This document shows positions 138 to 47,613 of a stretch of DNA of 64,000 bases, piece by piece; positions within the stretch are counted from its first letter, which is position 1; each line of letters opens with the position of its first letter. The stretch is from IMG/VR virus record IMGVR_UViG_3300037790_000024, one strand, 5' to 3'. The stretch is from a virus. Taxonomy: Duplodnaviria > Heunggongvirae > Uroviricota > Caudoviricetes. The notes under the pieces are model-generated. The model saw nothing but the letters and a program-made list of their open reading frames with translations. It was not told the DNA's origin and did not search any database. Made by a program: the position numbers and the translations under genes.

Positions 138-2630
138 TTAGTGGCATTGTGCCCAGTTTCTTCCCATCTGGTATCCAGAAGTTAATTCCACCCTTAGGTT
201 AAAAAACTCTCCTCCTTTACGGATACTGTGTACAGCAAGCTCTCCAGCTCTGGAGTATCCTACATAGTAAGTGTCACCTACATGTCCAACATCACTCCAC
301 ACCTTACCTGTGCTACTCTCTTCTTTAGCTTTGAAAGCTTCTGCCTCTTCCTCTGTTTTAAACACTTTAACAACCACTTCCTTACGGTGCTGATCCATCT
401 GGGATTCATCGTGGTAGGCTATAAGCTGTTTAGAGTTGATACCCTCATATTTAACCCATCTATCCCAATACACCATAGCTCTCTTCATGCAGATCACGCC
501 TGCTGATTGGAATAATGTGTTTAACAAAGCATGTTTAGATCTAGTCCACAACTTACGTCCATCAATCCCTAGAATCCATTTCTTATCGTTTATTTCCCAG
601 TGCTTCTCTAGAGCAACCTTAAGGTCAGAAAGTGGCTTAGAAGCCTCCCAGAAAGCCTCAAACACCTTCTTAGCATGGTTCAGGCCCCAGTTCATTTGTT
701 TGGCTATTTTAGGTGGCTGAGCACCATAACTGCTAGAATATTTTAAAACTTTAGCATCATCCCTTGTTACACCCATCTTCTCAGCATTAATAGTGTGTAG
801 ATCATTAGGTTTAGCAGCAACCAAAGACTCCGCATATTTTTCCCCGTTATAAGGAATACAATAATGACCTTCAATCCTAGCTTCCAAACCATCTGCATCA
901 CACCCTATCTGTACCCTATCTTTCTCTACACAGAATAGAGATCGCATAGGCTCCCCATATAAACTTGTCACCCTAGGGATGTTAGCTACAATCTTGTGCT
1001 GAAACCTAGAGGTAGAACACCCACAGGTGTCCGCAGGAGTGGGAAGTCTTCCATCATACTCCAGTCTTGGATGAGCTAAGAGTCCGGTTCCATTAGGAGA
1101 CAGGATAGCATTCCGTCTATGTCGATAAGTTAGCCAATATACAATATCCTGAACATAACTAACCTGATCCCCAAGCCTAACTAGATTAGGGCAAAGATCC
1201 TCTTTATCAGTGCCAACTGTATAAGTTGGTTGTGTAATCACTTTAAGAGGTCTTGAGAGATCATGAGATAGCATTTTATCTCTCATCTCAGCTATCGTTC
1301 TAACTTTTAAATGCTCTAATCTAAAAGGTTTTAAAGGACTGTTGGCAGTTTCTTCGATATACTTCTCACAAGACTCTATAAACTTCTCTCTTGTTTTCTT
1401 GCGTTTATCCTGCCCCATCGTAATGTCCTTGTCTTTAAAGCTGAGAGGTTTCCAACCCAGCTCAACTAAGTGGGCTTTAATATCAGCTTGGCTAGACAGT
1501 TTCATAGGTTCTGTCATTTCTGGCATTACCTTATCTTCTAGATCCTTCCTTGCTTTCTTTTCAAGATCAGGAGGCAGCACTGGCTTCTCTGCTTTCTGTA
1601 AACACTCCCTAAGGAAAGGAGCATACTCCTCTGGGTCTACAATTCCAGCATTATTACAATATCTTTCCCCAGCCTTGCTCACTTCCCCTTTTTGTGTAAA
1701 GCAAGTTTTAGGAGGCTCTTTAAAAGACAGTCTTTCTCTATCAACAGGGTATCCCAGTTTTTCTAACCAAGAATATCCTGTAGCACTGATAGCCTTATCT
1801 GCTGTAAAAGGACTTGCAGGGAACTTAGGTTGCTTACTCACTGGTAGAGGTCTAGGAGGGAGTAAAGGCTCCACTCTAGCCTCAATGTCTGCCATGAGAG
1901 CGTTAAGTTCTTCTAAGTTTTTCTTAGCCAGCTCCTCATCAAACAGATACCCATACTCCTCCTGTCTGTAAATTAATTCTGCTACAGCTTTCTCTAACCA
2001 GTAAGCCACACTCCAATCCCAGCCTTTTGCTTCCTCTTTAAGATAGTGATACACTTTTTCATTAACTTCCACATCTCTAATGCAGTAGTCCAGCATTCTA
2101 GGATGCCACTTCTTAAATTCAGCCCCTTTAGGATCATCTGGCTTAATTAAACCAAGCTTGATAGCTTCAGCTCTCCAGTCAATTTTATTAAAACCAAGCT
2201 TTTTGCCAAAGGCTTCAATACCATGACCATCCCTGTCAGGGAACAGTGTTTTAGATAGAACATAAGTGTCCTCAATAAAACAACGATCCCCATTTAGGGT
2301 ATCATAATCCCTCCAGTGGGGATGTTCTTCTAACTCCTCGGCTTTACAAGTATCTGCAATAGAGTAGTCAATACCCAGCAGATATTGTATAGCTGGTAAA
2401 TCATAACTAATTATGTTATGTCCAATTATTTCATCTGTCTTACCAAGAAGCAGTTTGAACTGATCTAAGGTGAACTGGGTTTCTTCGTTGTCTCCAAAGG
2501 TGAAAATCTCTTTTGTATCAACATCTTTAGCTACAATGCAGTGTATTTTAGTCACCCTGTCCCAGACATTCATCAAACCATCTGCTTCAATGTCAAATAC
2601 AATTCTTCTTCCCATTAGATGCAGTCCCAC
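138..2630 (-). CDS. DNA polymerase, family A (Pol I/T7-like) with N-terminal 3'-5' exonuclease domain
   Basis: Exo I-like DIEADGL near N-terminus; pol motif A DADGLEAR, motif B RDDAKVLKYSSSYG, motif C AYHDE; 830 aa. Confidence 0.9.
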   Translation of the reverse strand: MGLHLMGRRIVFDIEADGLMNVWDRVTKIHCIVAKDVDTKEIFTFGDNEETQFTLDQFKLLLGKTDEIIGHNIISYDLPAIQYLLGIDYSIADTCKAEELEEHPHWRDYDTLNGDRCFIEDTYVLSKTLFPDRDGHGIEAFGKKLGFNKIDWRAEAIKLGLIKPDDPKGAEFKKWHPRMLDYCIRDVEVNEKVYHYLKEEAKGWDWSVAYWLEKAVAELIYRQEEYGYLFDEELAKKNLEELNALMADIEARVEPLLPPRPLPVSKQPKFPASPFTADKAISATGYSWLEKLGYPVDRERLSFKEPPKTCFTQKGEVSKAGERYCNNAGIVDPEEYAPFLRECLQKAEKPVLPPDLEKKARKDLEDKVMPEMTEPMKLSSQADIKAHLVELGWKPLSFKDKDITMGQDKRKKTREKFIESCEKYIEETANSPLKPFRLEHLKVRTIAEMRDKMLSHDLSRPLKVITQPTYTVGTDKEDLCPNLVRLGDQVSYVQDIVYWLTYRHRRNAILSPNGTGLLAHPRLEYDGRLPTPADTCGCSTSRFQHKIVANIPRVTSLYGEPMRSLFCVEKDRVQIGCDADGLEARIEGHYCIPYNGEKYAESLVAAKPNDLHTINAEKMGVTRDDAKVLKYSSSYGAQPPKIAKQMNWGLNHAKKVFEAFWEASKPLSDLKVALEKHWEINDKKWILGIDGRKLWTRSKHALLNTLFQSAGVICMKRAMVYWDRWVKYEGINSKQLIAYHDESQMDQHRKEVVVKVFKTEEEAEAFKAKEESSTGKVWSDVGHVGDTYYVGYSRAGELAVHSIRKGGEFFNLRVELTSGYQMGRNWAQCH

Positions 2631-30179: not shown

Positions 30180-30387
30180 ATTCAAAAACAGACTTATTAT
30201 TCTACCACTGTTAATAATCATTCCTGTAGTGGCTCTTGTAGTAGGCACTGTAGATGGTTGTTGGGAGATTATAACGACAGGTTCTTACACAGAAACTTGG
30301 GAGTGGTTAAAAGAGGGTTGGAGTATTTTTAAAGAAGGTGTAGTTATTTTCTGGAAAGGGGGAGATCCTAGTGAAAATATTATTTAA
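30169..30387 (+). CDS. membrane protein
   Basis: MFHRFKNRLIILPLLIIIPVVALVVG TM helix. Confidence 0.45.
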   Translation: MFHRFKNRLIILPLLIIIPVVALVVGTVDGCWEIITTGSYTETWEWLKEGWSIFKEGVVIFWKGGDPSENII

Positions 30388-31336
30388 AGGACTATTTGGA
30401 AGTCACTTGTACGGACTTAATACAGAGAACAGTGACAGAGACTATAAAGCTGTATACCTGCCAGAGCCTGAGGATATTATCCTAGGTAGAGCTAAGGGAA
30501 GTATTTCTCACTCTACAGGCGGGAGTGATAGCAAGAATTCCTCAGAAGATGTAGACACAGAGTATTTTTCTCTTCAAGAGTTTGTCAAACTGGCTTGTCA
30601 GGGACAAACTGTAGCTATTGATATGCTTCACACCCCTCCTAGCCTAACTTTGGAAACTAGTGAGATCTGGGAACATCTTGTCTCTCATCGTCAATTATTC
30701 TATTCTAAAAATATGGACTCCTTTATGGGCTACGTTAAGAAACAGGCTGCTAAATACGGGATTAAAGGAAGTAAGGTAGCTGCATTGCAAGAGATTCTTG
30801 ATGTGATTGAAGAGGAAATGGATACAAACGGAGATATTCCTGATATATCTTATCTGCGTCATTCTCTGCCTGTCAATGAATATTGTTTCTGGGTGGATGA
30901 AGAAAACAACGGACAGAGCTTTTATTCGGTGAATGGGTCTTGGATGCATGATGTAATTTCTGTAGGGGAACTCCAGTCTAGAGTGCAAAAGCAGTATGAC
31001 AATTATGGACACAGAGCAAAACAAGCCGCTAATAATGAAGGTATTGATTGGAAAGCAATTAGTCATGCTCTAAGAGCTGGGTATCAACTTTACCATATTT
31101 TTGTAGAGGGAGATTTTGAATATCCTCTGATAGAAACCTACTACCTTAAGCAAGTTAAGGCTGGAGAGCTAGACTATACAACAAATGTTGCAGAGGAGCT
31201 GGAGCTTCTTGTGGAGATGTTAGATGCTAAAAGTGCTGAAGCACCTTTCCCAGAAAAGGTAGATTTTCAATACTGGGATGAATGGGTGTATTCTGTCTAC
31301 CTACAACATATTTTATTAGAGGAGGGGCTGCTATGA
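30371..31336 (+). CDS. nucleotidyltransferase (Pol-beta superfamily minimal NTase fold; resembles 'predicted nucleotidyltransferase' PF10127-type)
   Basis: N-terminal hG[GS]x9-13 DxD motif: LFGSHLYGLNTENSDRDYKAVYLP; GTG start with RBS; 321 aa. Confidence 0.6.
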   Translation: MKILFKGLFGSHLYGLNTENSDRDYKAVYLPEPEDIILGRAKGSISHSTGGSDSKNSSEDVDTEYFSLQEFVKLACQGQTVAIDMLHTPPSLTLETSEIWEHLVSHRQLFYSKNMDSFMGYVKKQAAKYGIKGSKVAALQEILDVIEEEMDTNGDIPDISYLRHSLPVNEYCFWVDEENNGQSFYSVNGSWMHDVISVGELQSRVQKQYDNYGHRAKQAANNEGIDWKAISHALRAGYQLYHIFVEGDFEYPLIETYYLKQVKAGELDYTTNVAEELELLVEMLDAKSAEAPFPEKVDFQYWDEWVYSVYLQHILLEEGLL

Positions 31337-31794
31337 GAGTGGTACAAGGAGATTTGTTTGAAGCCTTTAGGCTAGGCGTTGTAGATGCTATTGCCCACTG
31401 TGTAAACTGCAAAGGTGTTATGGGTAGTGGAGTGGCTTTACAGATGAAGGAAATCTACCCTGAGGTGTATAGAGTGTATAAAGATTTTGTGCAGGATTGC
31501 ATTTCGGAGGGCTATGTGCCTTTAGGAGAAAGCTTAGAAGTACACACCCAACACGGAGTTGTTTACAATTTGTTTGGACAAGAATATTATGGGAGGGATC
31601 AAAGACATCTTGATTATGGTGCTTTAGCAGACTCTCTAATAGGTATGTCTGTAGATCTTCCTGAGGGAACTACTGTAGGCTTTCCCTACAAGATTGGTTG
31701 TGATAGAGCTGGAGGCAACTGGGAGGTTGTACAAGAGATTATTTTCCACTTCCTAGAACGGGAAGGAATTAACGTAGTATTTTATCAGTTATGA
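31333..31794 (+). CDS. macro domain protein (ADP-ribose / Appr-1''-p processing)
   Basis: VVDAIAHCVNCKGVMGSGVALQ matches macro-domain glycine-rich loop (cf. AIVNAAN..LLGGGGVDGAI); ATGA overlap with upstream NTase. Confidence 0.7.
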   Translation: MRVVQGDLFEAFRLGVVDAIAHCVNCKGVMGSGVALQMKEIYPEVYRVYKDFVQDCISEGYVPLGESLEVHTQHGVVYNLFGQEYYGRDQRHLDYGALADSLIGMSVDLPEGTTVGFPYKIGCDRAGGNWEVVQEIIFHFLEREGINVVFYQL

Positions 31795-32951
31795 TTTTAG
31801 TAGGAAGTAGAGCCGCTAAATACTGGGGAATAAACAGAAGTGAGCCTAAAGACACAGATGTTTGGTATAGAGGAGAGCAACCTGAAGCTGTCCCCCACCA
31901 AGATAGTTTTTACTGTCCAGAACACATCTATGATTTGATGGAAGTAGATGAGAAAGGAGTAGCCACTCCAGATTGTCTGTACACCCTTAAGTGTTCTCAT
32001 TTAGGGGTTAATGCACATATAGAAAATGAGCGTATCTGGTGGAAGCATGTAAAAGATATTCTCTGGTTTAAAGAAGAACATTGCTGTATTCTTATTCCTG
32101 ACTTATATAAGGCACTGGTGGAATACTGGCTATCCTCTGGTAAGGATAAAGACCATTTATCCCTTAAAATGGATAAAGAAGACTTCTTTAATGACTTTGT
32201 AGAATATCGCTATGATCATGATTATCTACATGAGCTTGTAGCATACCCAAATACCCCTGTGTATGAAAAGTGTCTTAAAGAAGGGGAAGAAGTTCTACTT
32301 GACAAACAGTTGTTTGACAGGTTAGACTACTGTGACAAAATAAGAATGTTCAGAGAAGAGATAACTGTCATAGCTTGTGAAAGATGGTTGTTAAATCCAA
32401 AGAACACATTGAGTTGGTATCAGGCATACCATGAAAGCCTGAAAAAGACAATCACTCGTTTAACAAAAAACTGGGCTTGTGATTTCATTATTATGAACTT
32501 AGAGGAATTTGTGATCCCTGAGTTTAGTTATTTTAAACATATACTAGAAACTTTAAAGGAGGAATTAATGCCTAAAGTAGATTTAGAGGTATTTGAAAAA
32601 TTGAAAAAAGCACTTCAGTCAGAAGAAGGTCTAGGTCATTTAGTTATAGACTTAGCTGAAGCAGAGGAGTGGATGGATTACTCTGAACCTCAAATAGGAA
32701 GTGGATTAGGGTGGCAAGAACGGAGAGATAAGATCAAGGAAGTATTAGACTCCTTTGGATATGTCCACTTAGATCAAGAAGGTGGAGGAGAAGGTGGTAG
32801 TGAATACTGTTATGGGGTGTTTAAGCTGGGAGAAAAATTTTATCGTGCTGAATACTCCTATTATTCTCATCATGGATATGAGTATGATGGTATCGTAGAT
32901 ACCCTTCGAGAAGTTAAACCTGTTGAGAAGACAATCACAGTGTACGAATAA
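31791..32951 (+). CDS. second NTase-like protein (386 aa) with N-terminal GS...DxD motif and unknown C-terminal domain
   Basis: LVGSRAAKYWGINRSEPKDTDVWY; ATGA overlap with macro gene. Confidence 0.55.
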   Translation: MILVGSRAAKYWGINRSEPKDTDVWYRGEQPEAVPHQDSFYCPEHIYDLMEVDEKGVATPDCLYTLKCSHLGVNAHIENERIWWKHVKDILWFKEEHCCILIPDLYKALVEYWLSSGKDKDHLSLKMDKEDFFNDFVEYRYDHDYLHELVAYPNTPVYEKCLKEGEEVLLDKQLFDRLDYCDKIRMFREEITVIACERWLLNPKNTLSWYQAYHESLKKTITRLTKNWACDFIIMNLEEFVIPEFSYFKHILETLKEELMPKVDLEVFEKLKKALQSEEGLGHLVIDLAEAEEWMDYSEPQIGSGLGWQERRDKIKEVLDSFGYVHLDQEGGGEGGSEYCYGVFKLGEKFYRAEYSYYSHHGYEYDGIVDTLREVKPVEKTITVYE

Positions 32952-32973
32952 GGAAAATCCTTATATGGAAAGA

Positions 32974-32997
32974 GCCTATCCCTGATAGGCTTTTTTT
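32974..32997 (+). terminator. rho-independent terminator
   Basis: GCCTAT-ccctg-ATAGGC then TTTTTTT. Confidence 0.65.
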
Positions 32998-33069: not shown

Positions 33070-33141
33070 ATGTGGACTAAACCAGAATACTCAGACATGC
33101 GTTTCGGTTTTGAAGTGACAATGTACGTTGCCAACCGATAA
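33070..33141 (+). CDS. pqqA-like: PqqA-like 23-aa peptide (orphan PQQ-precursor-like gene)
   Basis: MWTKPEYSDMRFGFEVTMYVANR matches PqqA consensus MW.KP...D.R.G.EVT.Y..NR including the cross-linked E and Y; strong RBS aaaggagaatactATG; extended -10 TGaTATAAT at about 33005-33013. Confidence 0.4.
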   Translation: MWTKPEYSDMRFGFEVTMYVANR

Positions 33142-34723: not shown

Positions 34724-35030
34724 TTCTCCCCCTGTGTAGTTTATCCATAAGTTCTTCCCCCACTACTCTTACCCTCAAAGGATAGTCTTCCATCCTAAGG
34801 TTGTAAGCAGTGCCTGCTTTGAGCATATCTTTAGTTACGAGATGTTTGTGCATGTGCTCTATATCTTCGTAGTTTTTAAGAAGATACAAAGCCATTTTAT
34901 CATACACTTCGTCTGAAAGTATACTCTCATAACGGCAGTAGTAGCAATAGCTGGCTATTAGAAACCAGCTAAGTGCATTTTTCTTACCGTTTTTAAAAGC
35001 CTCTCGTGCTTCTTGGTCAAAGTTGTCCAT
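34716..35030 (-). CDS. hypothetical protein
   Basis: 104 aa. Confidence 0.45.
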   Translation of the reverse strand: MDNFDQEAREAFKNGKKNALSWFLIASYCYYCRYESILSDEVYDKMALYLLKNYEDIEHMHKHLVTKDMLKAGTAYNLRMEDYPLRVRVVGEELMDKLHRGRSG

Positions 35031-35535
35031 AGTCTACCTTAATAGTACCTAAATCTCTAAATTCTTCATAGAAATCATAGTCTAAAGAGCCTAAATAAGT
35101 AACTACGCTACCTTTAGTCACACCTTTCTTCTTAGTACCATCTGGGAGGTAATAGTTGGTTCTACCATGTATGTAGCACTGAGGATACTCTAAAAGAGGT
35201 CTAAACCAAGCTTCACTAGTAGCAGCAAAGGTTATGCAGCAAGCTTGATCAATATTTCCTTTCTCATATTCTGCCACAAGTTTTTCTATTGCTCTTTTAT
35301 TATAGTCCCTTCCGAAAGGATGATTCATCCAGACATTCCCAAACCAATCTTTAGTGAAAGCATCATCTTCTTCAGTAAAGAAGAAGTCTGCCCCCACTCG
35401 CTTGTTTGCAACAGCACTACTAAAGGGATCTAGAGTTATACTCCCCATAGCAGCTCTAGCTCTCTCTACTATATCTTCAGGGGTGTACCACTCAAAATTA
35501 CCACTGTCCTGATTAATTAATTGAGCACTATCCAT
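35017..35535 (-). CDS. DNA N6-adenine methyltransferase, phage Dam family (PF05869-like)
   Basis: NFEWYTPEDIVERARAAMGSITLDPFSS and VWMNHPFG (N/D-PP-Y/F-like) motifs. Confidence 0.55.
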   Translation of the reverse strand: MDSAQLINQDSGNFEWYTPEDIVERARAAMGSITLDPFSSAVANKRVGADFFFTEEDDAFTKDWFGNVWMNHPFGRDYNKRAIEKLVAEYEKGNIDQACCITFAATSEAWFRPLLEYPQCYIHGRTNYYLPDGTKKKGVTKGSVVTYLGSLDYDFYEEFRDLGTIKVDYGQL

Positions 35536-35778
35536 TTAGTATCCTTGAATCAAAACAATCTTAATATGTTCTTCTGGATCAAGATCTTCCTCGGCTACAC
35601 ACTCAGCCATGTATTCACTCTCGTAAATATATTCTTCACCTACCCAAGTAGCTGACATGGCATATTGACCATGATCAGCCTCTACCCTAACCTCCATCTC
35701 TGGATCAAGGTTTTCCAACTGTTTAATTAATTCTCTCACTTTCATATTAAAACTCCTCGTTATAACTACCAACATCAA
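35536..35778 (-). CDS. hypothetical acidic protein
   Basis: 80 aa. Confidence 0.4.
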   Translation of the reverse strand: MMLVVITRSFNMKVRELIKQLENLDPEMEVRVEADHGQYAMSATWVGEEYIYESEYMAECVAEEDLDPEEHIKIVLIQGY

Positions 35779-36652
35779 AAATGTTTGGCATACCTTTTAA
35801 AGTCCAGTGACGAATCATCTGTCTGCGATCATCAAAGACAGCATAAACATTATATTTTCCCCTAATGTGATTTTCGTACAACTCGTCTTTAATTACAGAG
35901 TCTTTACGGGAATCTCCGGCCTGTCTCATATACAGGGTAGGTTTAGGAGTTATATAGGAAGAAATCCATTCATAAGTTTCTTTATAACAACTTCCATCCC
36001 TACCTGATAAGAAGATAATATCTATCCCAGTTTGAGAACGAATCCCTGAGACAGCAGCTATAATAGACTCTCTAGGAGAATCTTCCCCCACCTTGCTCCA
36101 ATCAAAAGGCGATCTTCCTTCCATAGAGGCCACAGTACCGTCAATATCACAGATAATGCAATCTGGTAGATCAGGAGCATGCTCATAAAGTTTAACACTT
36201 CCAAACTGTCGTTCAAACCTTATATACTGATCCCACAGTAGAGCTTCAGACAAACCCCCCTGTCTCTGAGCGTTACGCTTAACTAAAGTTTCCCAAGGAC
36301 AAGGGAAGAGTTTTTCCTCATAATCATACCCACAGTCCTTAGCCCACTGCTTCCATTTATTACGAGCTTTGGTGCTAAGGTTGGTATCTGAAATTATGAT
36401 GTTGGAGTTATTGTGTGTAGCCCACTTAGCTTTCTGCAACTGAACCTCAGTAACCTTATTCTCATTGTTTTTTGAAAATTTATACTTAGTCCAGTCCCTG
36501 ACAGAATTTGTAAACAATGAAAAGCGGATCTCATCTCTATTGAGGTTAGCCCATTTCTCACCTTTAGCTATACCTTCTATCTTGAACTCTTCAGCCCAAG
36601 TAGTTTTACCTGAAGCGCTGGCTCCAATTGTTAAAATAATTTTTGGCATCAT
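35747..36652 (-). CDS. pseT: polynucleotide 5'-kinase/3'-phosphatase (T4 Pnk homolog)
   Basis: MMPKIILTIGASASGKTTWAEEF vs T4 [22 protein letters not shown]; C-terminal HAD-like phosphatase DIDGT...DDR; 301 aa, same length as T4 Pnk. Confidence 0.85.
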   Translation of the reverse strand: MMPKIILTIGASASGKTTWAEEFKIEGIAKGEKWANLNRDEIRFSLFTNSVRDWTKYKFSKNNENKVTEVQLQKAKWATHNNSNIIISDTNLSTKARNKWKQWAKDCGYDYEEKLFPCPWETLVKRNAQRQGGLSEALLWDQYIRFERQFGSVKLYEHAPDLPDCIICDIDGTVASMEGRSPFDWSKVGEDSPRESIIAAVSGIRSQTGIDIIFLSGRDGSCYKETYEWISSYITPKPTLYMRQAGDSRKDSVIKDELYENHIRGKYNVYAVFDDRRQMIRHWTLKGMPNIFDVGSYNEEF

Positions 36653-36933: not shown

Positions 36934-37215
36934 CTACCTCCCTTCATAAAACCACATATACGCATTACAGTAGGCATGCACTGCCCCCTCTGTCATCCCA
37001 GTGTTATGATCATGCTGTAGATGGACAGGCCATTTAAGAAAATTAGGAGGAAACAGCCTCCAATCAATATACTTGCTAGTTATACCAGCAGGGGGCTTGT
37101 TTATCAACAACTCGTTGCAAAACATGCAACGGCCTTTTTGTCTTCTAACATACTCCTCTCTAACCTCCTTTCTTTCTCTAGGAGAGAGTTTTTCATAGTT
37201 GGTGGGGAGATTCAT
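36934..37215 (-). CDS. hypothetical Zn-binding protein
   Basis: CMFCNE...HLQHDHNTG...HAYCN. Confidence 0.45.
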   Translation of the reverse strand: MNLPTNYEKLSPRERKEVREEYVRRQKGRCMFCNELLINKPPAGITSKYIDWRLFPPNFLKWPVHLQHDHNTGMTEGAVHAYCNAYMWFYEGR

Positions 37216-38510
37216 TATGAAGCATCCTCCTCGTCCACGTTTTCTTCTTTGTAGATCCCTTCCATAATGCGGAATGCTTTAGATTTGTTTTTATAAAACT
37301 TGGGTGTCAAACCTTGTCCATCTACACGGATAACAACACCTTCATTAACATGAGATGGATCTCTGTAGTCTTCTGTCAACACCTCAGGGCGGTCTGTTAG
37401 CTGATCTACCAGTTCTACTAGTTTATCTTTATCTCCATCATAAACAAAAGGCTCTACCAGATCAAGAGGTGGCTCAATGCCACGTTGCTCACACCAAGCT
37501 ACCAACTGAGGCTCTGTCAAATCCACCTCTGTTCCATCTACAGTGGTGTATGTAACACGGTAGGCGTAAAACTTGTAGTTTCCTTCAGGGCAACCATACT
37601 TGTACACCATAGTGTCTCCATACTTCTTAGTGTAAGCCTTGTCTTTTAGAGTTTTTACATTGTGGCTTCCCATAATAGGTTTGTCGTTAGCGTAGCCCAC
37701 GATCTCCCCATATACAGTAACACCTCTTTCCAGATGAGGCTTTAGTTGCTCCAGAATCTCAAAGCGAAAGGCTTCTGATCCATGAAAACCGTCTTTGTCT
37801 TTATCGACAGATTTCAAAACAACTCTTCGTGTGCCTGCAACATATTCCCACTCTTCTGTTTTGAAGATAGGCACTACTTTATTAATCAACTTCTTCCACT
37901 CTGGAAGATTTTTAGTCACCAAGGTGTTAGAATAACGAGCTGAAGTGCCATGTCCTTTAGCCTGAATAGAGATAACAGATCCAACAGGAATACGATCAAC
38001 ACTATATTTAAACTGATCTGTATCTACGTGCTGGTGGAACAAAGGAGTTTCAACAGCTTTACGAGCTTGTTTTTTCTTGTTGCCAATAGCTCTGAGGGTG
38101 TGAGGATTGACATATTTCTTAGCAATGCCAACTCCATTCAGTTCTTCAAACTGATCTCCCAAAGAAAAAGTGTCAATATCATAGCCAGTGAACACCAAGG
38201 AGTTAATATCAGTGAAATAGCCACAAGATTTAACTCCTAAGAAAGGTTGTGCTCTCACCTTACCGTTGTCGTCAAAAAATCCTTTCTTGTCAGGATCTTT
38301 GTTTTTATCTGAGTGGCGATAAAGATTGTTGTTTGACAAAAACTCTGGAGACAACTGAGTGTCTGGTGGGAAGAACACACCAACATACCCCACTTCCAGT
38401 TCTTTTGAAACAATAACTGGTTCTCCAAGTACATACGCCACTTGAATTTTATTTGCCTTTTCGATAGGCTCAACTTTGTCAATTTTTGCAATAATACCAC
38501 AATAGTTCAT
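37215..38510 (-). CDS. RNA ligase (Rnl2-like nucleotidyltransferase motif KxHGT) fused to N-terminal tRNA-binding OB-fold (EMAP/Myf-like) domain
   Basis: N-term CGIIAKIDKVEPIEKANKIQVAYVLGEPVIVSKEL resembles tRNA_bind domain; IQAKGHGTSARY resembles Rnl2 motif I EKIHGTNFS; adjacent to pnk; 431 aa. Confidence 0.6.
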   Translation of the reverse strand: MNYCGIIAKIDKVEPIEKANKIQVAYVLGEPVIVSKELEVGYVGVFFPPDTQLSPEFLSNNNLYRHSDKNKDPDKKGFFDDNGKVRAQPFLGVKSCGYFTDINSLVFTGYDIDTFSLGDQFEELNGVGIAKKYVNPHTLRAIGNKKKQARKAVETPLFHQHVDTDQFKYSVDRIPVGSVISIQAKGHGTSARYSNTLVTKNLPEWKKLINKVVPIFKTEEWEYVAGTRRVVLKSVDKDKDGFHGSEAFRFEILEQLKPHLERGVTVYGEIVGYANDKPIMGSHNVKTLKDKAYTKKYGDTMVYKYGCPEGNYKFYAYRVTYTTVDGTEVDLTEPQLVAWCEQRGIEPPLDLVEPFVYDGDKDKLVELVDQLTDRPEVLTEDYRDPSHVNEGVVIRVDGQGLTPKFYKNKSKAFRIMEGIYKEENVDEEDAS

Positions 38511-42714: not shown

Positions 42715-42789
42715 TGGCCTGCTTACAAGGACTCGAACCCTGACTAAGGGAGTAGAAATCCCTTGTGCTATCCATTACACCATAAGCAG
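42715..42789 (-). tRNA. tRNA-Arg (TCT)
   Basis: Acceptor CTGCTTA/TAAGCAG, anticodon loop TTTCTAC, T-loop TTCGAGT, CCA encoded. Confidence 0.8.
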
Positions 42790-42794
42790 TTATT

Positions 42795-42871
42795 TGGTCG
42801 GAGATAAAGGACTTGAACCTTTGACCCCTTGCTCCCAAAGCAAGTGCTCTACCAGACTGAGCTAATCTCCG
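42795..42871 (-). tRNA. tRNA-Pro (TGG)
   Basis: Acceptor CGGAGAT/ATCTCCG, anticodon loop TTTGGGA, CCA encoded. Confidence 0.8.
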
Positions 42872-42879
42872 TTTTGTTC

Positions 42880-42950
42880 TGGGGTGACGCGCAGAATCAA
42901 ACTGCTCCATACAGGGTCACAACCTGATGTCCTCTCAGAGGTACGCCACA
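42880..42950 (-). tRNA. degenerate tRNA-His-like element (anticodon GTG; abnormal D-arm); possible pseudo-tRNA
   Basis: Acceptor GTGGCGT/GCGTCAC + C73 + CCA, anticodon loop TTGTGAC, but D-arm only about 11 nt. Confidence 0.3.
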
Positions 42951-43016
42951 TTAAATAAGTGAGAGGTTGTTGGCGCAACCCCTCTTGATGAATTGACAGC
43001 TCATCATCGTTTATTA

Positions 43017-43092
43017 TGGCAGGGAAGGTGAGACTCGAACTCACGCATCAGGGGATCAAAGCCCCTTGCCTTATCCACTTGGCTACTTCCCA
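43017..43092 (-). tRNA. tRNA-Gln (TTG)
   Basis: Anticodon loop CTTTGAT, T-loop TTCGAGT, CCA encoded. Confidence 0.75.
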
Positions 43093-43099
43093 ACTTATT

Positions 43100-43186
43100 T
43101 GGTACAGGAGGAGAGACTCGAACTCTCACGCCACTAAGGACACTGGAACCTAAATCCAGCGCGGCTACCAATTACGCCACTCCTGC
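43100..43186 (-). tRNA. tRNA-Leu (TAG), type II
   Basis: Acceptor GCAGGAG/CTCCTGT, anticodon loop TTTAGGT, long variable arm. Confidence 0.8.
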
Positions 43187-43197
43187 ATATTTTCTAA

Positions 43198-43282
43198 TGG
43201 TACGAGAGGTGGGGATCGAACCCACACGCTAAAAAGCAAGGGATTTTAAGTCCCTCATGACTACCAATTCCATCACTCTCGC
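43198..43282 (-). tRNA. tRNA-Leu (TAA), type II
   Basis: Anticodon loop CTTAAAA, long variable arm, T-loop TTCGATC. Confidence 0.8.
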
Positions 43283-43371
43283 TATAAGGAGGATTCTAGA
43301 TACGTCTACCTAGCGATACTGGTACTCCAGTCAACGTACTCTCGCAGAGGTTCCTCTCTCTCTTTTTGTAT

Positions 43372-43447
43372 TGGTTGAGGCAGTTGGACTTGAACCAACG
43401 ACAACCCGATTATCGGTCGGGTACTCTACCAACTGAGTTATGCCTCA
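43372..43447 (-). tRNA. tRNA-Ile (GAT)
   Basis: Acceptor TGAGGCA/TGCCTCA, anticodon loop CCGATAA. Confidence 0.75.
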
Positions 43448-43452
43448 TTATT

Positions 43453-43581
43453 TGGTGGAATGATCTGGGTTTTATCCAGAGACCTAGTTTCAAACTAGTC
43501 AGCCTTGTATAGCCAGCATAAATTGTCTCGGTTTGGACTTACCTCCCCTCTCTTTTCGGACGACTCTCCTGCTTTCATTCC
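43453..43581 (-). ncRNA. 129-nt tRNA-like element: 7-bp acceptor-like stem GGAATGA/TCATTCC + A + CCA, T-arm-like hairpin, about 55-nt insertion in 5' half
   Basis: Sits in register within the tRNA array, 5 nt from tRNA-Ile and 6 nt from tRNA-Asn; internal hairpin GACTAG-TTTGAAA-CTAGGTC (anticodon-like TGA). Confidence 0.4.
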
Positions 43582-43587
43582 GTAAGG

Positions 43588-43659
43588 CTGGCATGGTAGG
43601 ACTCGAACCTACGACAACAACATTAACAGTGTTGCGTTCTACCACTGAACTACATGCCA
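43588..43659 (-). tRNA. tRNA-Asn (GTT), CCA not encoded
   Basis: Anticodon stem CAACA/TGTTG loop CTGTTAA; T-arm GTAGGTTCGAGTCCTAC. Confidence 0.75.
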
Positions 43660-43669
43660 ATATTCTTTT

Positions 43670-43745
43670 TGGTGCTCCGTCAGGGACTCGAACCCCATCT
43701 CCCAAGTTATGAGCTTGGCACTCTTACCCGATGAGTTACCGGAGC
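43670..43745 (-). tRNA. tRNA-Met (CAT) elongator-type (or Ile-lysidine CAT)
   Basis: Acceptor GCTCCGG, anticodon loop CTCATAA, G1-C72 paired. Confidence 0.7.
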
Positions 43746-43875
43746 GTGTATTCTATCACAGTCTGTTCCTGTGAGTCAAGCCCTAACCATCACGTTAGTT
43801 AATGCGCCTTAGCGGGGATTCAAACCCTATTCTGATACCAATTGTCGCTACCTAGCAGAATCGAACTGCATGCTC

Positions 43876-43965
43876 TGGCAGAGGGAGAGGGATTTGAACC
43901 CTCGGAGGCTTTTAAGCCTCACCACCTTAGCAGGGTGGTACAATAAACCGCTCTGACATCCCTCT
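43876..43965 (-). tRNA. tRNA-Ser (GCT), type II
   Basis: Acceptor AGAGGGA/TCCCTCT, anticodon loop CTGCTAA, long variable arm, T-loop TTCAAAT. Confidence 0.8.
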
Positions 43966-43970
43966 ATGTT

Positions 43971-44046
43971 TGGAGCGGGTGATGGGATTTGAACCCACAA
44001 CATCTGACTTGGAAGGACAGCACTCTACCAATTGAGTTACACCCGC
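43971..44046 (-). tRNA. tRNA-Gly (TCC)
   Basis: Acceptor GCGGGTG/CACCCGC, anticodon loop CTTCCAA, T-loop TTCAAAT. Confidence 0.8.
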
Positions 44047-46175: not shown

Positions 46176-46601
46176 ATGAACCAGCTAGGAGAAATGATTG
46201 CTTTAGTATCTCACAGATTTAAAAACAAGACAGATAAGGGAGGTAATCCCTACATCCTTCACTGCCTGTACGTGATGAATAAAGTGAGTCACTTAGGAGA
46301 GCTTGCTATGATTGTTGGGGTGGGACATGACTTGTTAGAAGATACTAACATAACTCCTTCAGATTTGTGGGGTCTGGGTTTTGGGGACGATGTTATCGAT
46401 CTCTTAAAGAAAGTAACTCATCTAGACGGGGAGCCTTACATGGACTATATCAAGAGAGCCGCCTCCCATCCAATTTCACGAGCTGTTAAAATGGCTGACT
46501 TAGAACACAACAGCCAAATCTTTCGTATGAAAGGACTTCGGCAGAAAGACTTTGAACGTCTTGAGAAGTATTTTACAGCCTATGCCTACTTGAGTGAATG
46601 A
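46176..46601 (+). CDS. HD-domain (p)ppGpp hydrolase, Mesh1/SpoT-hydrolase-like small alarmone hydrolase
   Basis: ALVSHRFKNKTDKGGNPYILHCLYV and GVGHDLLEDTNITPSDLWGLGFGDDVIDLLKKVTH match HD_4 His...HD...ED motifs. Confidence 0.7.
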   Translation: MNQLGEMIALVSHRFKNKTDKGGNPYILHCLYVMNKVSHLGELAMIVGVGHDLLEDTNITPSDLWGLGFGDDVIDLLKKVTHLDGEPYMDYIKRAASHPISRAVKMADLEHNSQIFRMKGLRQKDFERLEKYFTAYAYLSE

Positions 46602-46830
46602 TATGAGTAATGTTTGTGATATTTGTGGGGAGGGAGAGGTTACACTGAAGTGTTCTCCCAACTTTGTTATGTTTAGAGAGCATTCAACTACGCTACCAGC
46701 ATATTTTTTGTTTTGCAACTGCTGTGAAGTAGCTTACGCTAATGAAGATATTCTATATCTAAATAAACTTCAATACGAGTCTTTTAGAGTGGAGAGGGAG
46801 CTTAAAGAAACTTACGAGAGGACTGCATGA
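46594..46830 (+). CDS. zinc-finger protein
   Basis: CDICGEG...CNCC. Confidence 0.45.
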   Translation: MNDMSNVCDICGEGEVTLKCSPNFVMFREHSTTLPAYFLFCNCCEVAYANEDILYLNKLQYESFRVERELKETYERTA

Positions 46831-47258
46831 TAGAACAGTTTAAAGAACCTTATCGGTGGCTTTCTAACTTTTGGAAGTTTAATACTCCTTTGGAGTATCA
46901 GAACTTATTGTTTCCTACAGTAGAGCATTTTTATGTTGCAATGAAGACTACCTCTTGGGATTTAAGACATCAAGCATCTCTTACAGATAGACCTAAATCT
47001 TTTGGGAGAGGTTTAGAGCTTAGAGAAGACTGGGAGCAGATTAAGTTAGATGTAATGCTGTATGCAACAAGGTATAAATACTCAGAATTAAATCCAAACC
47101 TAAGAAGGAAACTCTTAAACACTGGAGAGGAATATATTCAGGAAGGTAATTGGTGGGGGGATAAGTTCTGGGGAGTTTGTCTTAAAACAGGAGAAGGAGA
47201 GAACAATCTAGGGAAGATAATCATGCAAGTGAGGGAGGAGATAAGGGATGCCATTTAA
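46827..47258 (+). CDS. NADAR-domain protein (YbiA-like; DUF1768)
   Basis: YRWLSNFWKFNTPL...FPTVEHFYVAMKT and GNWWGDKFWGVCLKTGEGENNLGKIIMQVREEI parallel E. coli YbiA FSNF...PTSEHYFQAQKF and YWGDGG...GKNRLGYLLMELREQL. Confidence 0.7.
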   Translation: MIEQFKEPYRWLSNFWKFNTPLEYQNLLFPTVEHFYVAMKTTSWDLRHQASLTDRPKSFGRGLELREDWEQIKLDVMLYATRYKYSELNPNLRRKLLNTGEEYIQEGNWWGDKFWGVCLKTGEGENNLGKIIMQVREEIRDAI

Positions 47259-47613
47259 AGCTATTGTCGCAGGAGGGAGAGGATTCTCAGACTTTGACTT
47301 GTTGTGTGATAAGCTTGACTTCTATTTCTCAGAGATCCCAGATGCAATAGAGATTGTTTGTGGAGGGGCTAGAGGCGCTGATGCACTAGGGGACTTGTAT
47401 GCTAAAAATAATGCTTTAGATGTAACTTACTTCCCCGCTAACTGGGATAAACACGGTAAGCAAGCGGGTATTCTACGAAACATAGAGATGGGAGAGTATG
47501 CAGACGCTCTAGTGGCTTTCTGGGATGGGAAGTCTTCTGGCACAAAGCACATGATCGAGTATATGGATATTGTTGCTAATAAACCTGTAAGGGTGGTGAG
47601 GTATGATAGATAA
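47248..47613 (+). CDS. SLOG-family protein (DUF2493/YspA-like Rossmann fold)
   Basis: IVAGGRGFSD...IVCGGARGADALGDLYA...YFPANWDKHGKQAGILRN...VAFWDGKSSGTKHMI matches DUF2493 pattern. Confidence 0.6.
   Translation: MPFKAIVAGGRGFSDFDLLCDKLDFYFSEIPDAIEIVCGGARGADALGDLYAKNNALDVTYFPANWDKHGKQAGILRNIEMGEYADALVAFWDGKSSGTKHMIEYMDIVANKPVRVVRYDR

Follow-up and report, generated by a model that had tools for sequence, protein, structure and literature searches.

The 64,000-nucleotide (nt) stretch of DNA analysed here (IMG/VR record IMGVR_UViG_3300037790_000024, hereafter the window) comes from a tailed phage and carries three consecutive genes, open reading frames ORF1, ORF2 and ORF3. They encode a nucleotidyltransferase (NTase), a macrodomain protein and a second NTase. 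The more probable account of this trio is that its products are co-expressed but independent accessory enzymes, not parts of one obligate machine. ORF1 and ORF2 each add a member to a known, recently characterised family, and ORF3 belongs to an uncharacterised viral family, the fold of which is established here. All three genes lie on the plus strand exactly where an earlier note on this DNA had placed them (Table 1), and the ATGA start/stop overlaps that it described were read at 31333-31336 (ORF1/ORF2) and 31791-31794 (ORF2/ORF3). On three identical metagenomic contigs, gene callers working independently predicted the same three genes.

As independent accessory enzymes, the three co-transcribed products would each reverse or pre-empt nucleic-acid damage. 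ORF1 would add nucleotides to RNA 3' ends and support tRNA repair, the polynucleotide kinase/phosphatase (PNKP) and RNA ligase of the phage then healing and sealing the ends. ORF2 would strip ADP-ribose from a macromolecular adduct, the likeliest substrate being ADP-ribosyl-thymidine on single-stranded DNA, produced by DarT2-type toxins. ORF3 would nucleotidylate an RNA 3' end with the help of its C-terminal domain. Adjacency and ATGA coupling would secure co-expression of the three without implying physical or pathway dependency.

A Pol-beta-superfamily motif had been predicted for the first gene. It is present in ORF1, with G10, S11, D22, D24 and D62 invariant across nine phage RlaP sequences, including T4 NrdC.11. 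The comparison with known NTase families grouped ORF1 with RlaP (PF10127) above the Pfam threshold (E 1.4e-13; 51.5 bits, gathering score 23). The Pfam model covers the N-terminal half of ORF1 only, which is typical of the phage cluster. The match to phrog_388 ‘nucleotidyltransferase’ extends over residues 1-314 (E 2e-93), and identity to T4 NrdC.11 is 41% over residues 1-313 (E 1e-88). ORF1 thus resembles T4 NrdC.11 in its full-length alignment, GS...DxD...D motifs and PHROG, and in the presence of PNKP and RNA ligase in the same phage. Homologues were found by tblastn in 1,618 phage records, mostly from T4-like phages.

The RlaP family is named for its linkage with RNA ligases, and the association of the two in phages has been described (PMC7824862). 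A 2025 preprint reports that two Pseudomonas RlaPs (PfRlaP and PaRlaP) add one to two nucleoside monophosphates to the RNA 3'-OH in vitro, favour damaged tRNA mimics and are inactive on DNA or protein (PMC12776372). T4 NrdC.11 was assigned to the RlaP family in the same study, in which activity was demonstrated for Pseudomonas cluster-1a enzymes only, the phage cluster being excepted (PMC12776372). ORF1 shares the association with RNA-repair genes through its proximity to PNKP and ligase, which begin 4.4 kb and 5.9 kb downstream of its stop codon. Both are on the convergent strand, however, and ORF1 differs from the RlaP pattern in not being co-operonic with the ligase. In another locus (L044), RNA ligase, RlaP and PNKP are contiguous. 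To judge from its sequence, ORF1 is an ordinary phage RlaP. The suggestion of RNA end-healing alongside pnk and rnl suits this gene; it does not extend to the trio as a single module.

The identification of the middle gene as a macro domain is upheld by PHROG, PADLOC and structural matches. ORF2 matches phrog_335, the PHROG of T4 Tk.4, at E 7e-42 and the PADLOC DarG model over residues 2-152 at E 2.3e-14. Its matches in the PDB include the DarG macrodomains 5m3i (E 9e-8) and 5m31, SCO6735 (5e3b) and TARG1. The score against Pfam Macro is 14.5 bits, under the gathering score of 22, and NCBIfam DarG (NF048014) is matched at N-terminal residues 2-66 only (50 bits against a cutoff of 250). ORF2 is 25% identical to T4 Tk.4 (E 1e-10). 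The ADP-ribose-binding loops are present as HCVNCKGVMGSGVA, of the VN...GxMGxGxA type, and as IGCDRAGGNW, the C-terminal Gly-rich loop. Residues N25, G33, N79, P118 and G122 are invariant in an alignment of 10 macro sequences, which includes DarG, SCO6735, Tk.4 and five other phage macros.

The earlier note had proposed the Gly-rich loop and catalytic Asn/Asp residues as a check on the macro domain. The loops are found, and the MacroD-type Asn/Asp test is inapplicable because the class to which ORF2 belongs uses the Lys of DarG/TARG1, replaced here by Gln as in the functional T4 AdfM. At the position of DarG K80 (TARG1 K84) the aligned segments read NLFGQEYY in ORF2 against NFPTKKHW, so that the catalytic Lys is absent. 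The same Gln stands in every aligned phage macro, Tk.4 included, and in SCO6735. This replacement places ORF2 in the AdfM/SCO6735 sub-type and not with DarG proper. The features shared with the AdfM/DarG/TARG1/SCO6735 proteins are a stand-alone macro of about 150 aa, the DarG-like N-terminal GxMGxGxA loop and the second Gly-rich loop. The C-terminal DarT-binding domain of DarG is missing (153 aa against model lengths of 329-338), and no ADP-ribosyltransferase (ART) or darT gene was seen adjacent to ORF2. By these features ORF2 is classed as a predicted AdfM-type stand-alone hydrolase and not as a DarG antitoxin.

The T4 gene tk.4 was the single HIDEN-SEQ hit under DarTG2; its clean knockout sensitised the phage and the gene was renamed adfM (bioRxiv 10.1101/2025.11.20.689424). 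The T4 NADAR protein AdfN is reported in the same work as an anti-DarTG1 factor. The window also encodes a NADAR protein, and together with the ORF2 macro this means that the phage holds both classes of ADP-ribose-removing enzyme. By analogy with Tk.4, the function of which was shown genetically, ORF2 would remove ADP-ribose from DNA, or possibly from RNA. An anti-defence role in erasing ADP-ribosylation, as the earlier note had put forward for the trio, therefore fits ORF2, the homologue of a protein protective against DarTG2, and not the three genes as a module. In T4, tk.4 adjoins tk/vs, whereas ORF2 sits between two NTase genes. In Vibrio phage K406 (L012, 3369-6322), a macro gene 43% identical to ORF2 lies between phosphoribosyl pyrophosphate (PRPP)-synthetase-like and nicotinamide phosphoribosyltransferase (NAMPT)-like genes, 2.4 kb upstream of the K406 homologue of ORF3. 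This cassette looks like NAD+ reconstitution with a built-in ADP-ribose hydrolase.

The third gene is the item most worth attention, as a member of a large virus-restricted family without a described function, for which a fold, a triad and a partner domain can now be given. ORF3 (386 aa) matches PF23940 (DUF7275) at E 9e-50 (169.6 bits, cutoff 27) and, at its N-terminus, PF23942 (DUF7277) at 24.1 bits, just under the threshold of 27; the Pfam scan gave nothing besides these two. Its PHROGs are families of unknown function only, and residues 1-255 fall in other families than the last ~90. The AlphaFold2 model (predicted local distance difference test 86, predicted template modelling score 0.81) has an NTase fold in which GS, DxD and the third Asp are in register, placed as in a Pol-beta NTase. 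The Pol-beta fold, which had been set as a check on the motifs, is in this way borne out for ORF3. G5, D21 and D23 are invariant in 50 homologues, among which the conservation of S6 and D38 is 90% or higher. The helical part has its own invariant residues, charged and other: K67, S69, H70, H143, D144, H147, E189, E190, E197, R198, K219 and K226.

Fold neighbours of the ORF3 model include the MenT toxins, which nucleotidylate tRNA 3' ends, and the single top hit is AbiEi, an antitoxin. Neither phmmer nor a 50-homologue profile matched ORF3 to any PDB sequence (profile at E up to 10). ORF3 differs from MenT/AbiEii (DUF1814) in several respects. There is no sequence-profile relation, the protein is larger, and its different helical domain (DUF7275) bears its own invariant HD..H, EE, ER and K. 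It has an extra small C-terminal domain, and it is viral whereas MenT/AbiEii are chromosomal. No AbiEi-like or MenA antitoxin gene is present among the neighbours of ORF3. On the model, ORF3 is probably an active NTase of MenT/AbiE-like fold which acts with its small C-terminal domain. The best guess for its substrate is an RNA or tRNA 3' end, because MenT is among the fold neighbours and a minority of lineages have RNA-repair genes within 8 kb.

The resemblance to MenT and AbiE also allows ORF3 to be read as a counter-defence decoy or antagonist of host AbiE/MenT-type NTase toxins. It would then neutralise them in the manner of AbiEi, or compete for or re-modify the tRNA 3' ends which they extend. 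The near restriction of the family to viruses, giant viruses among them, is in keeping with this. The invariant GS/DxD/D triad argues for catalysis over decoy binding, and the sequence of ORF3 links it neither to DUF1814 nor to a solved chain; this reading is judged very unlikely. A toxin-antitoxin-like pair had been raised in the earlier note and is the least probable of all the readings. In it, ORF3 would be a MenT-like toxin checked by the ORF2 macro, or the pair would be a DarTG analogue. It would account for the MenT-like fold of ORF3, the likeness of ORF2 to the DarG antitoxin and the tight coupling of the genes. It is contradicted by the lack of a conserved pairing: most DUF7275 genes have no macro neighbour and the gene is a common stand-alone gene in phages (699 records). 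Furthermore, ORF2 is without the toxin-binding C-terminal domain of DarG, and no DarT-like ART is present.

The DUF7275 family comprises ~2,000 clusters at 50% identity (E up to 1e-3) and spans T4-like, marine, actinobacterial and giant viruses. Its members include RB69 ORF134c, KVP40.0037 and giant-virus (Satyrvirus/Sylvanvirus) proteins, and one GenBank record labels a homologue ‘putative nucleotidyltransferase’. The family is essentially viral, as only three metagenome-assembled contigs among the genomes of 185,579 species carry it and at least one of these is a phage contig. Two forms occur, a fused one of ~360-410 aa and an N-terminal-only one of ~250-270 aa. ORF3 is of the fused form and shares 40% full-length identity with ORF138 of Alteromonas phage PT11-V22, which has the same architecture. 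Unlike ORF3, many DUF7275/DUF7277 proteins lack the fused C-terminal domain or have it encoded separately; Vibrio phages R16F and K406 have neighbouring genes for the two parts. Fold, catalytic triad and partner domain together offer a concrete hypothesis, cheap to approach by experiment, for a gene found in hundreds of sequenced phages, RB69 included.

Around 83 non-redundant DUF7275 loci, the two flanking genes on each side were clustered without a preset list of families. The C-terminal domain was the sole family to recur more than three times, being encoded as a separate downstream gene, sometimes duplicated, by 40 genes around these loci. The model of this domain is confident, yet comparison by structure and with Pfam gave nothing significant. 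No other partner of the DUF7275 enzyme is conserved. It is conceivable, though rather unlikely, that DUF7277-DUF7275 and this domain form a virus-restricted two-component NTase on RNA/tRNA 3' ends, as a repair step or as a counter-measure to MenT/AbiE, and that the macro neighbour reflects a real coupling to de-ADP-ribosylation.

Fusions of DUF7275 to macro or RNA-repair domains were sought in the Rosetta-stone manner, and the long members of the family gave only an HNH/NUMOD4 homing-endonuclease insertion. In the metagenomic homologue P0251 (420 aa), a segment with HNH_3 and NUMOD4 separates the DUF7277 part from the latter half of DUF7275, which suggests an intron- or intein-like insertion of the type often found in conserved phage genes. 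An equivalence of ORF3 with T4 NrdC.10, the product of the gene after nrdC.11, was rejected as the sequences are unrelated. No ORF3 homologue was found in T4 between 38 and 62 kb, the 24-kb stretch searched.

The third gene had been said to repeat an NTase signature similar to that of the first. This stands at the level of the fold; in profile-profile comparison there is no specific signature shared with ORF1, and a common origin of the ORF3 and RlaP families was rejected (hhalign probability 0.9%, no relation). As far as sequence profiles can tell, the resemblance is that of the superfamily motif only. Neither ORF1 nor ORF3 was matched by the CD-NTase families of Pfam or by any PADLOC model at E up to 0.1. 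The grouping with CD-NTases that had been considered for the two enzymes is thus not found. The nucleotide-signal synthesis and erasure envisaged in the earlier note has no basis, because neither NTase matches CD-NTases or PADLOC defence models. In such a scheme, one NTase would make a nucleotide second messenger for the macro to remove, or the macro would clear the cyclic-nucleotide or ADP-ribose signals of host CBASS or Thoeris. Phage macrodomains and NADAR domains have been proposed to degrade soluble ADP-ribose-derived signals (PMC7824862, PMC9503650), and the K406 macro homologue stands in a context of NAD+ salvage. ORF1, however, is an RlaP, that is an RNA 3'-end transferase, there is no effector or sensor gene nearby, and the pairing of NTase and macro is not conserved. 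Signalling is for these reasons regarded as highly improbable.

The distribution of the three genes speaks for their independence. In the nearest relative, in which ORF3 is 68% identical, RlaP is followed by an unrelated 77-aa ORF and DUF7275; the ATGA coupling is kept and there is no macro. The survey of neighbours took in 51 non-redundant DUF7275 lineages with 8 kb of flank or more; seven have a macro within 5 kb of DUF7275 and three have one directly adjacent. The adjacency occurs in both gene orders, with the macro upstream in the window and in L029 and downstream in L008. Genes for RlaP (4/51), PNKP (8/51), RNA ligase (4/51, within 8 kb) and a CCA-like NTase (3/51) are also found near DUF7275, and in 34 of the 51 lineages none of the tested genes is nearby. 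Macro and RlaP are both near DUF7275 in this phage alone (L004-L006, which are identical). RlaP-centred loci had no macro nearby, and in T4 nrdC.11 and tk.4 are 5 kb apart. No conserved three-gene arrangement was found across independent lineages, and the trio is not a conserved module.

A different arrangement, in which the trio forms an integrated RNA end-repair module with PNKP and RNA ligase, is judged improbable. The macro would clear ADP-ribose or ADP-ribose-phosphate from RNA termini, or detoxify ADP-ribose-1''-phosphate (Appr-1''-p) or its cyclic form (ADPr>p); RlaP would restore missing nucleotides, and the DUF7275 enzyme would carry out a second nucleotide-addition or end-marking step. 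The trio does adjoin PNKP, RNA ligase, a CCA-like NTase and ten tRNA genes. Within 8 kb of DUF7275, PNKP occurs in 8/51 lineages, and RNA ligase and RlaP in 4/51 each. DUF7275 directly adjoins PNKP in L022 and the CCA-like NTase in phage R16F, the macro is next to it in three lineages, and roles of macrodomains in RNA repair have been proposed (PMC7824862, PMC9503650). On the other side, no gene for KptA/Tpt1, 2H or sirtuin, as a source of ADP-ribose-phosphate, occurs in the annotated parts of the window (about 1-14.5, 21.8-43 and 46-60 kb). T4-type PNKP removes the 2',3'-cyclic phosphate without NAD+. In the nearest relative another gene stands in the place of the macro and both RlaP and DUF7275 are kept, which goes against the proposal that the trio is one module, and the sole experimental phenotype of the macro family is anti-DarTG2, a matter of DNA.

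Several observations weigh against the account of three independent enzymes and the assignments within it. The adjacency of macro and DUF7275 in three lineages is more than naive chance would give and may point to a genuine functional link. Taken with the scattered proximity of PNKP and RNA ligase, as raw counts, it is suggestive. ORF3 has no Shine-Dalgarno sequence of its own and in this phage probably leans on the translation of ORF2. With respect to ORF2, identity to Tk.4 is no higher than the 25% given above, and as both proteins lack the catalytic Lys of DarG their chemistry may differ from that of DarG.

The start of ORF1 is a GTG at 30371 with a strong Shine-Dalgarno sequence, and the N-terminus so defined aligns with residue 1 of T4 NrdC.11. 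ORF2 starts at an ATG at 31333 with GAGGAGGGG 5 nt upstream. A longer ORF2 frame from 31282 was rejected, as alignment to Tk.4 and other phage macros favours 31333. No Shine-Dalgarno sequence occurs within ~20 nt of the ORF3 ATG, which makes it plausible that ORF3 is translated by coupling to ORF2 in this phage. The overlap of the trio genes is not distinctive, because 18 of the 26 junctions in the same rightward operon overlap, five of these by 4 nt. The trio represents the final cistrons of this long operon of small, mostly unannotated genes. Macro genes in early regions beside RNA-repair genes are a described pattern (PMC9503650), and the operon is taken to be early on the strength of what is published for such genes. 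An intrinsic terminator closes the operon; in its predicted fold (-21.3 kcal/mol, z -5.1; none of 200 shuffles equally stable), A/U pairs on either side lengthen the stem.

Table 1. Coordinates of the trio, its expression signals and neighbouring features in the window.
Feature	Position	Strand	Description
Shine-Dalgarno-like AAGGGGGAG	30356..30364	+	6 nt before ORF1 GTG start; read from sequence
ORF1, 321 aa	30371..31336	+	RlaP-family (PF10127) Pol-beta nucleotidyltransferase, predicted orthologue of T4 NrdC.11
ORF2, 153 aa	31333..31794	+	Predicted stand-alone DarG/TARG1-class macrodomain, T4 Tk.4 (AdfM)/SCO6735 type
ORF3 (whole gene)	31791..32951	+
ORF3 residues 1-255	31791..32555	+	Pol-beta NTase core (DUF7277, ~residues 1-60) and helical DUF7275 domain
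ORF3 residues ~305-386 (plus stop)	32703..32951	+	Small alpha/beta C-terminal domain (GGGEGGSE...YSYYSH)
Intrinsic terminator	32973..32997	+	8-bp core stem, 3-nt loop, U-run; closes operon
CCA-adding/poly(A)-polymerase-head-like NTase, 189 aa	34154..34723	-	PolyA_pol E 7e-4 (below cutoff); phrog_1614 ‘nucleotidyltransferase’ E 1.2e-14
Stand-alone NLig-Ia, 104 aa	34716-35030	-	E 2.7e-8; NAD+-binding domain Ia of LigA
T4-type polynucleotide kinase/phosphatase	35747..36652	-	Pfam HAD_PNKP E 1.6e-41 and AAA_33
RNA ligase	37215..38510	-	Pfam RNA_ligase E 2.3e-8; also precomputed annotation
tRNA cluster, ten genes	42715-44046	-	Arg-TCT, Pro, Gln, Leu x2, Ile, Asn, Met, Ser, Gly
NADAR	46827-47258	+	Overlaps YAcAr; just upstream of terminase
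YAcAr (SLOG)	47248-47613	+	Overlaps NADAR; just upstream of terminase

The source is a tailed phage of roughly 90 kb from uncultured samples, and the longest contig with ORF3 is 90,886 bp. Genes of the phage include those for a family-A DNA polymerase, primase-helicase, terminase, portal, protease, major capsid protein and tape measure. No match to the 2.6-kb region was found when 50,697 phage records were searched by megablast; the phage is without a close sequenced relative. With RlaP and an AdfM-type anti-DarT macrodomain as two clear assignments, annotation of the window is straightforward.

A minus-strand block is convergent with the trio and contains the CCA-adding-like NTase, NLig-Ia, a Dam-like methyltransferase, T4-type PNKP, RNA ligase, ClpP, PhoH and GH108, a lysozyme-family peptidoglycan hydrolase; the ten tRNA genes come after it. 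From the ORF3 stop codon, PNKP is 2.8 kb and RNA ligase 4.3 kb downstream. The 189-aa NTase bears a GGxxRD...DxD head motif. Stand-alone NLig-Ia has been proposed as a viral NAD+ sensor (PMC9503650). The tRNA cluster shares its strand with the RNA-repair genes. NADAR, SLOG (YAcAr), PNKP, RNA ligase, the CCA-like NTase and the ten tRNA genes make up a dense kit against host attack on nucleic acids.

The Dam-like methyltransferase gene of the window (35017-35535) is on the opposite strand, 2 kb downstream of the DUF7275 gene. In Alteromonas phage PT11-V22 and its relatives (L013/L027/L040), a homologue with 62-64% identity is found directly upstream of the DUF7275 gene, and the differing position indicates rearrangement of a shared gene set. 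A 141-aa ORF at 46176-46601 on the plus strand, for which there is no precomputed Pfam annotation, contains an H...HD...D pattern (HCLYVM...GHDLLEDT) which suggests an HD-domain phosphohydrolase.

Just downstream of ORF3, between two terminator-like hairpins, there is a 23-codon plus-strand gene (33070-33141) with its own Shine-Dalgarno sequence. The peptide matches Pfam PqqA, the pyrroloquinoline quinone (PQQ) precursor peptide, with 44 bits where the cutoff is 21 (E 1.6e-11). No pqqB-E genes were seen in the annotated parts of the window, and a motif scan of 151 loci found the PqqA-like peptide confined to the contigs of this phage. An orphan pqqA in a phage is unexpected.

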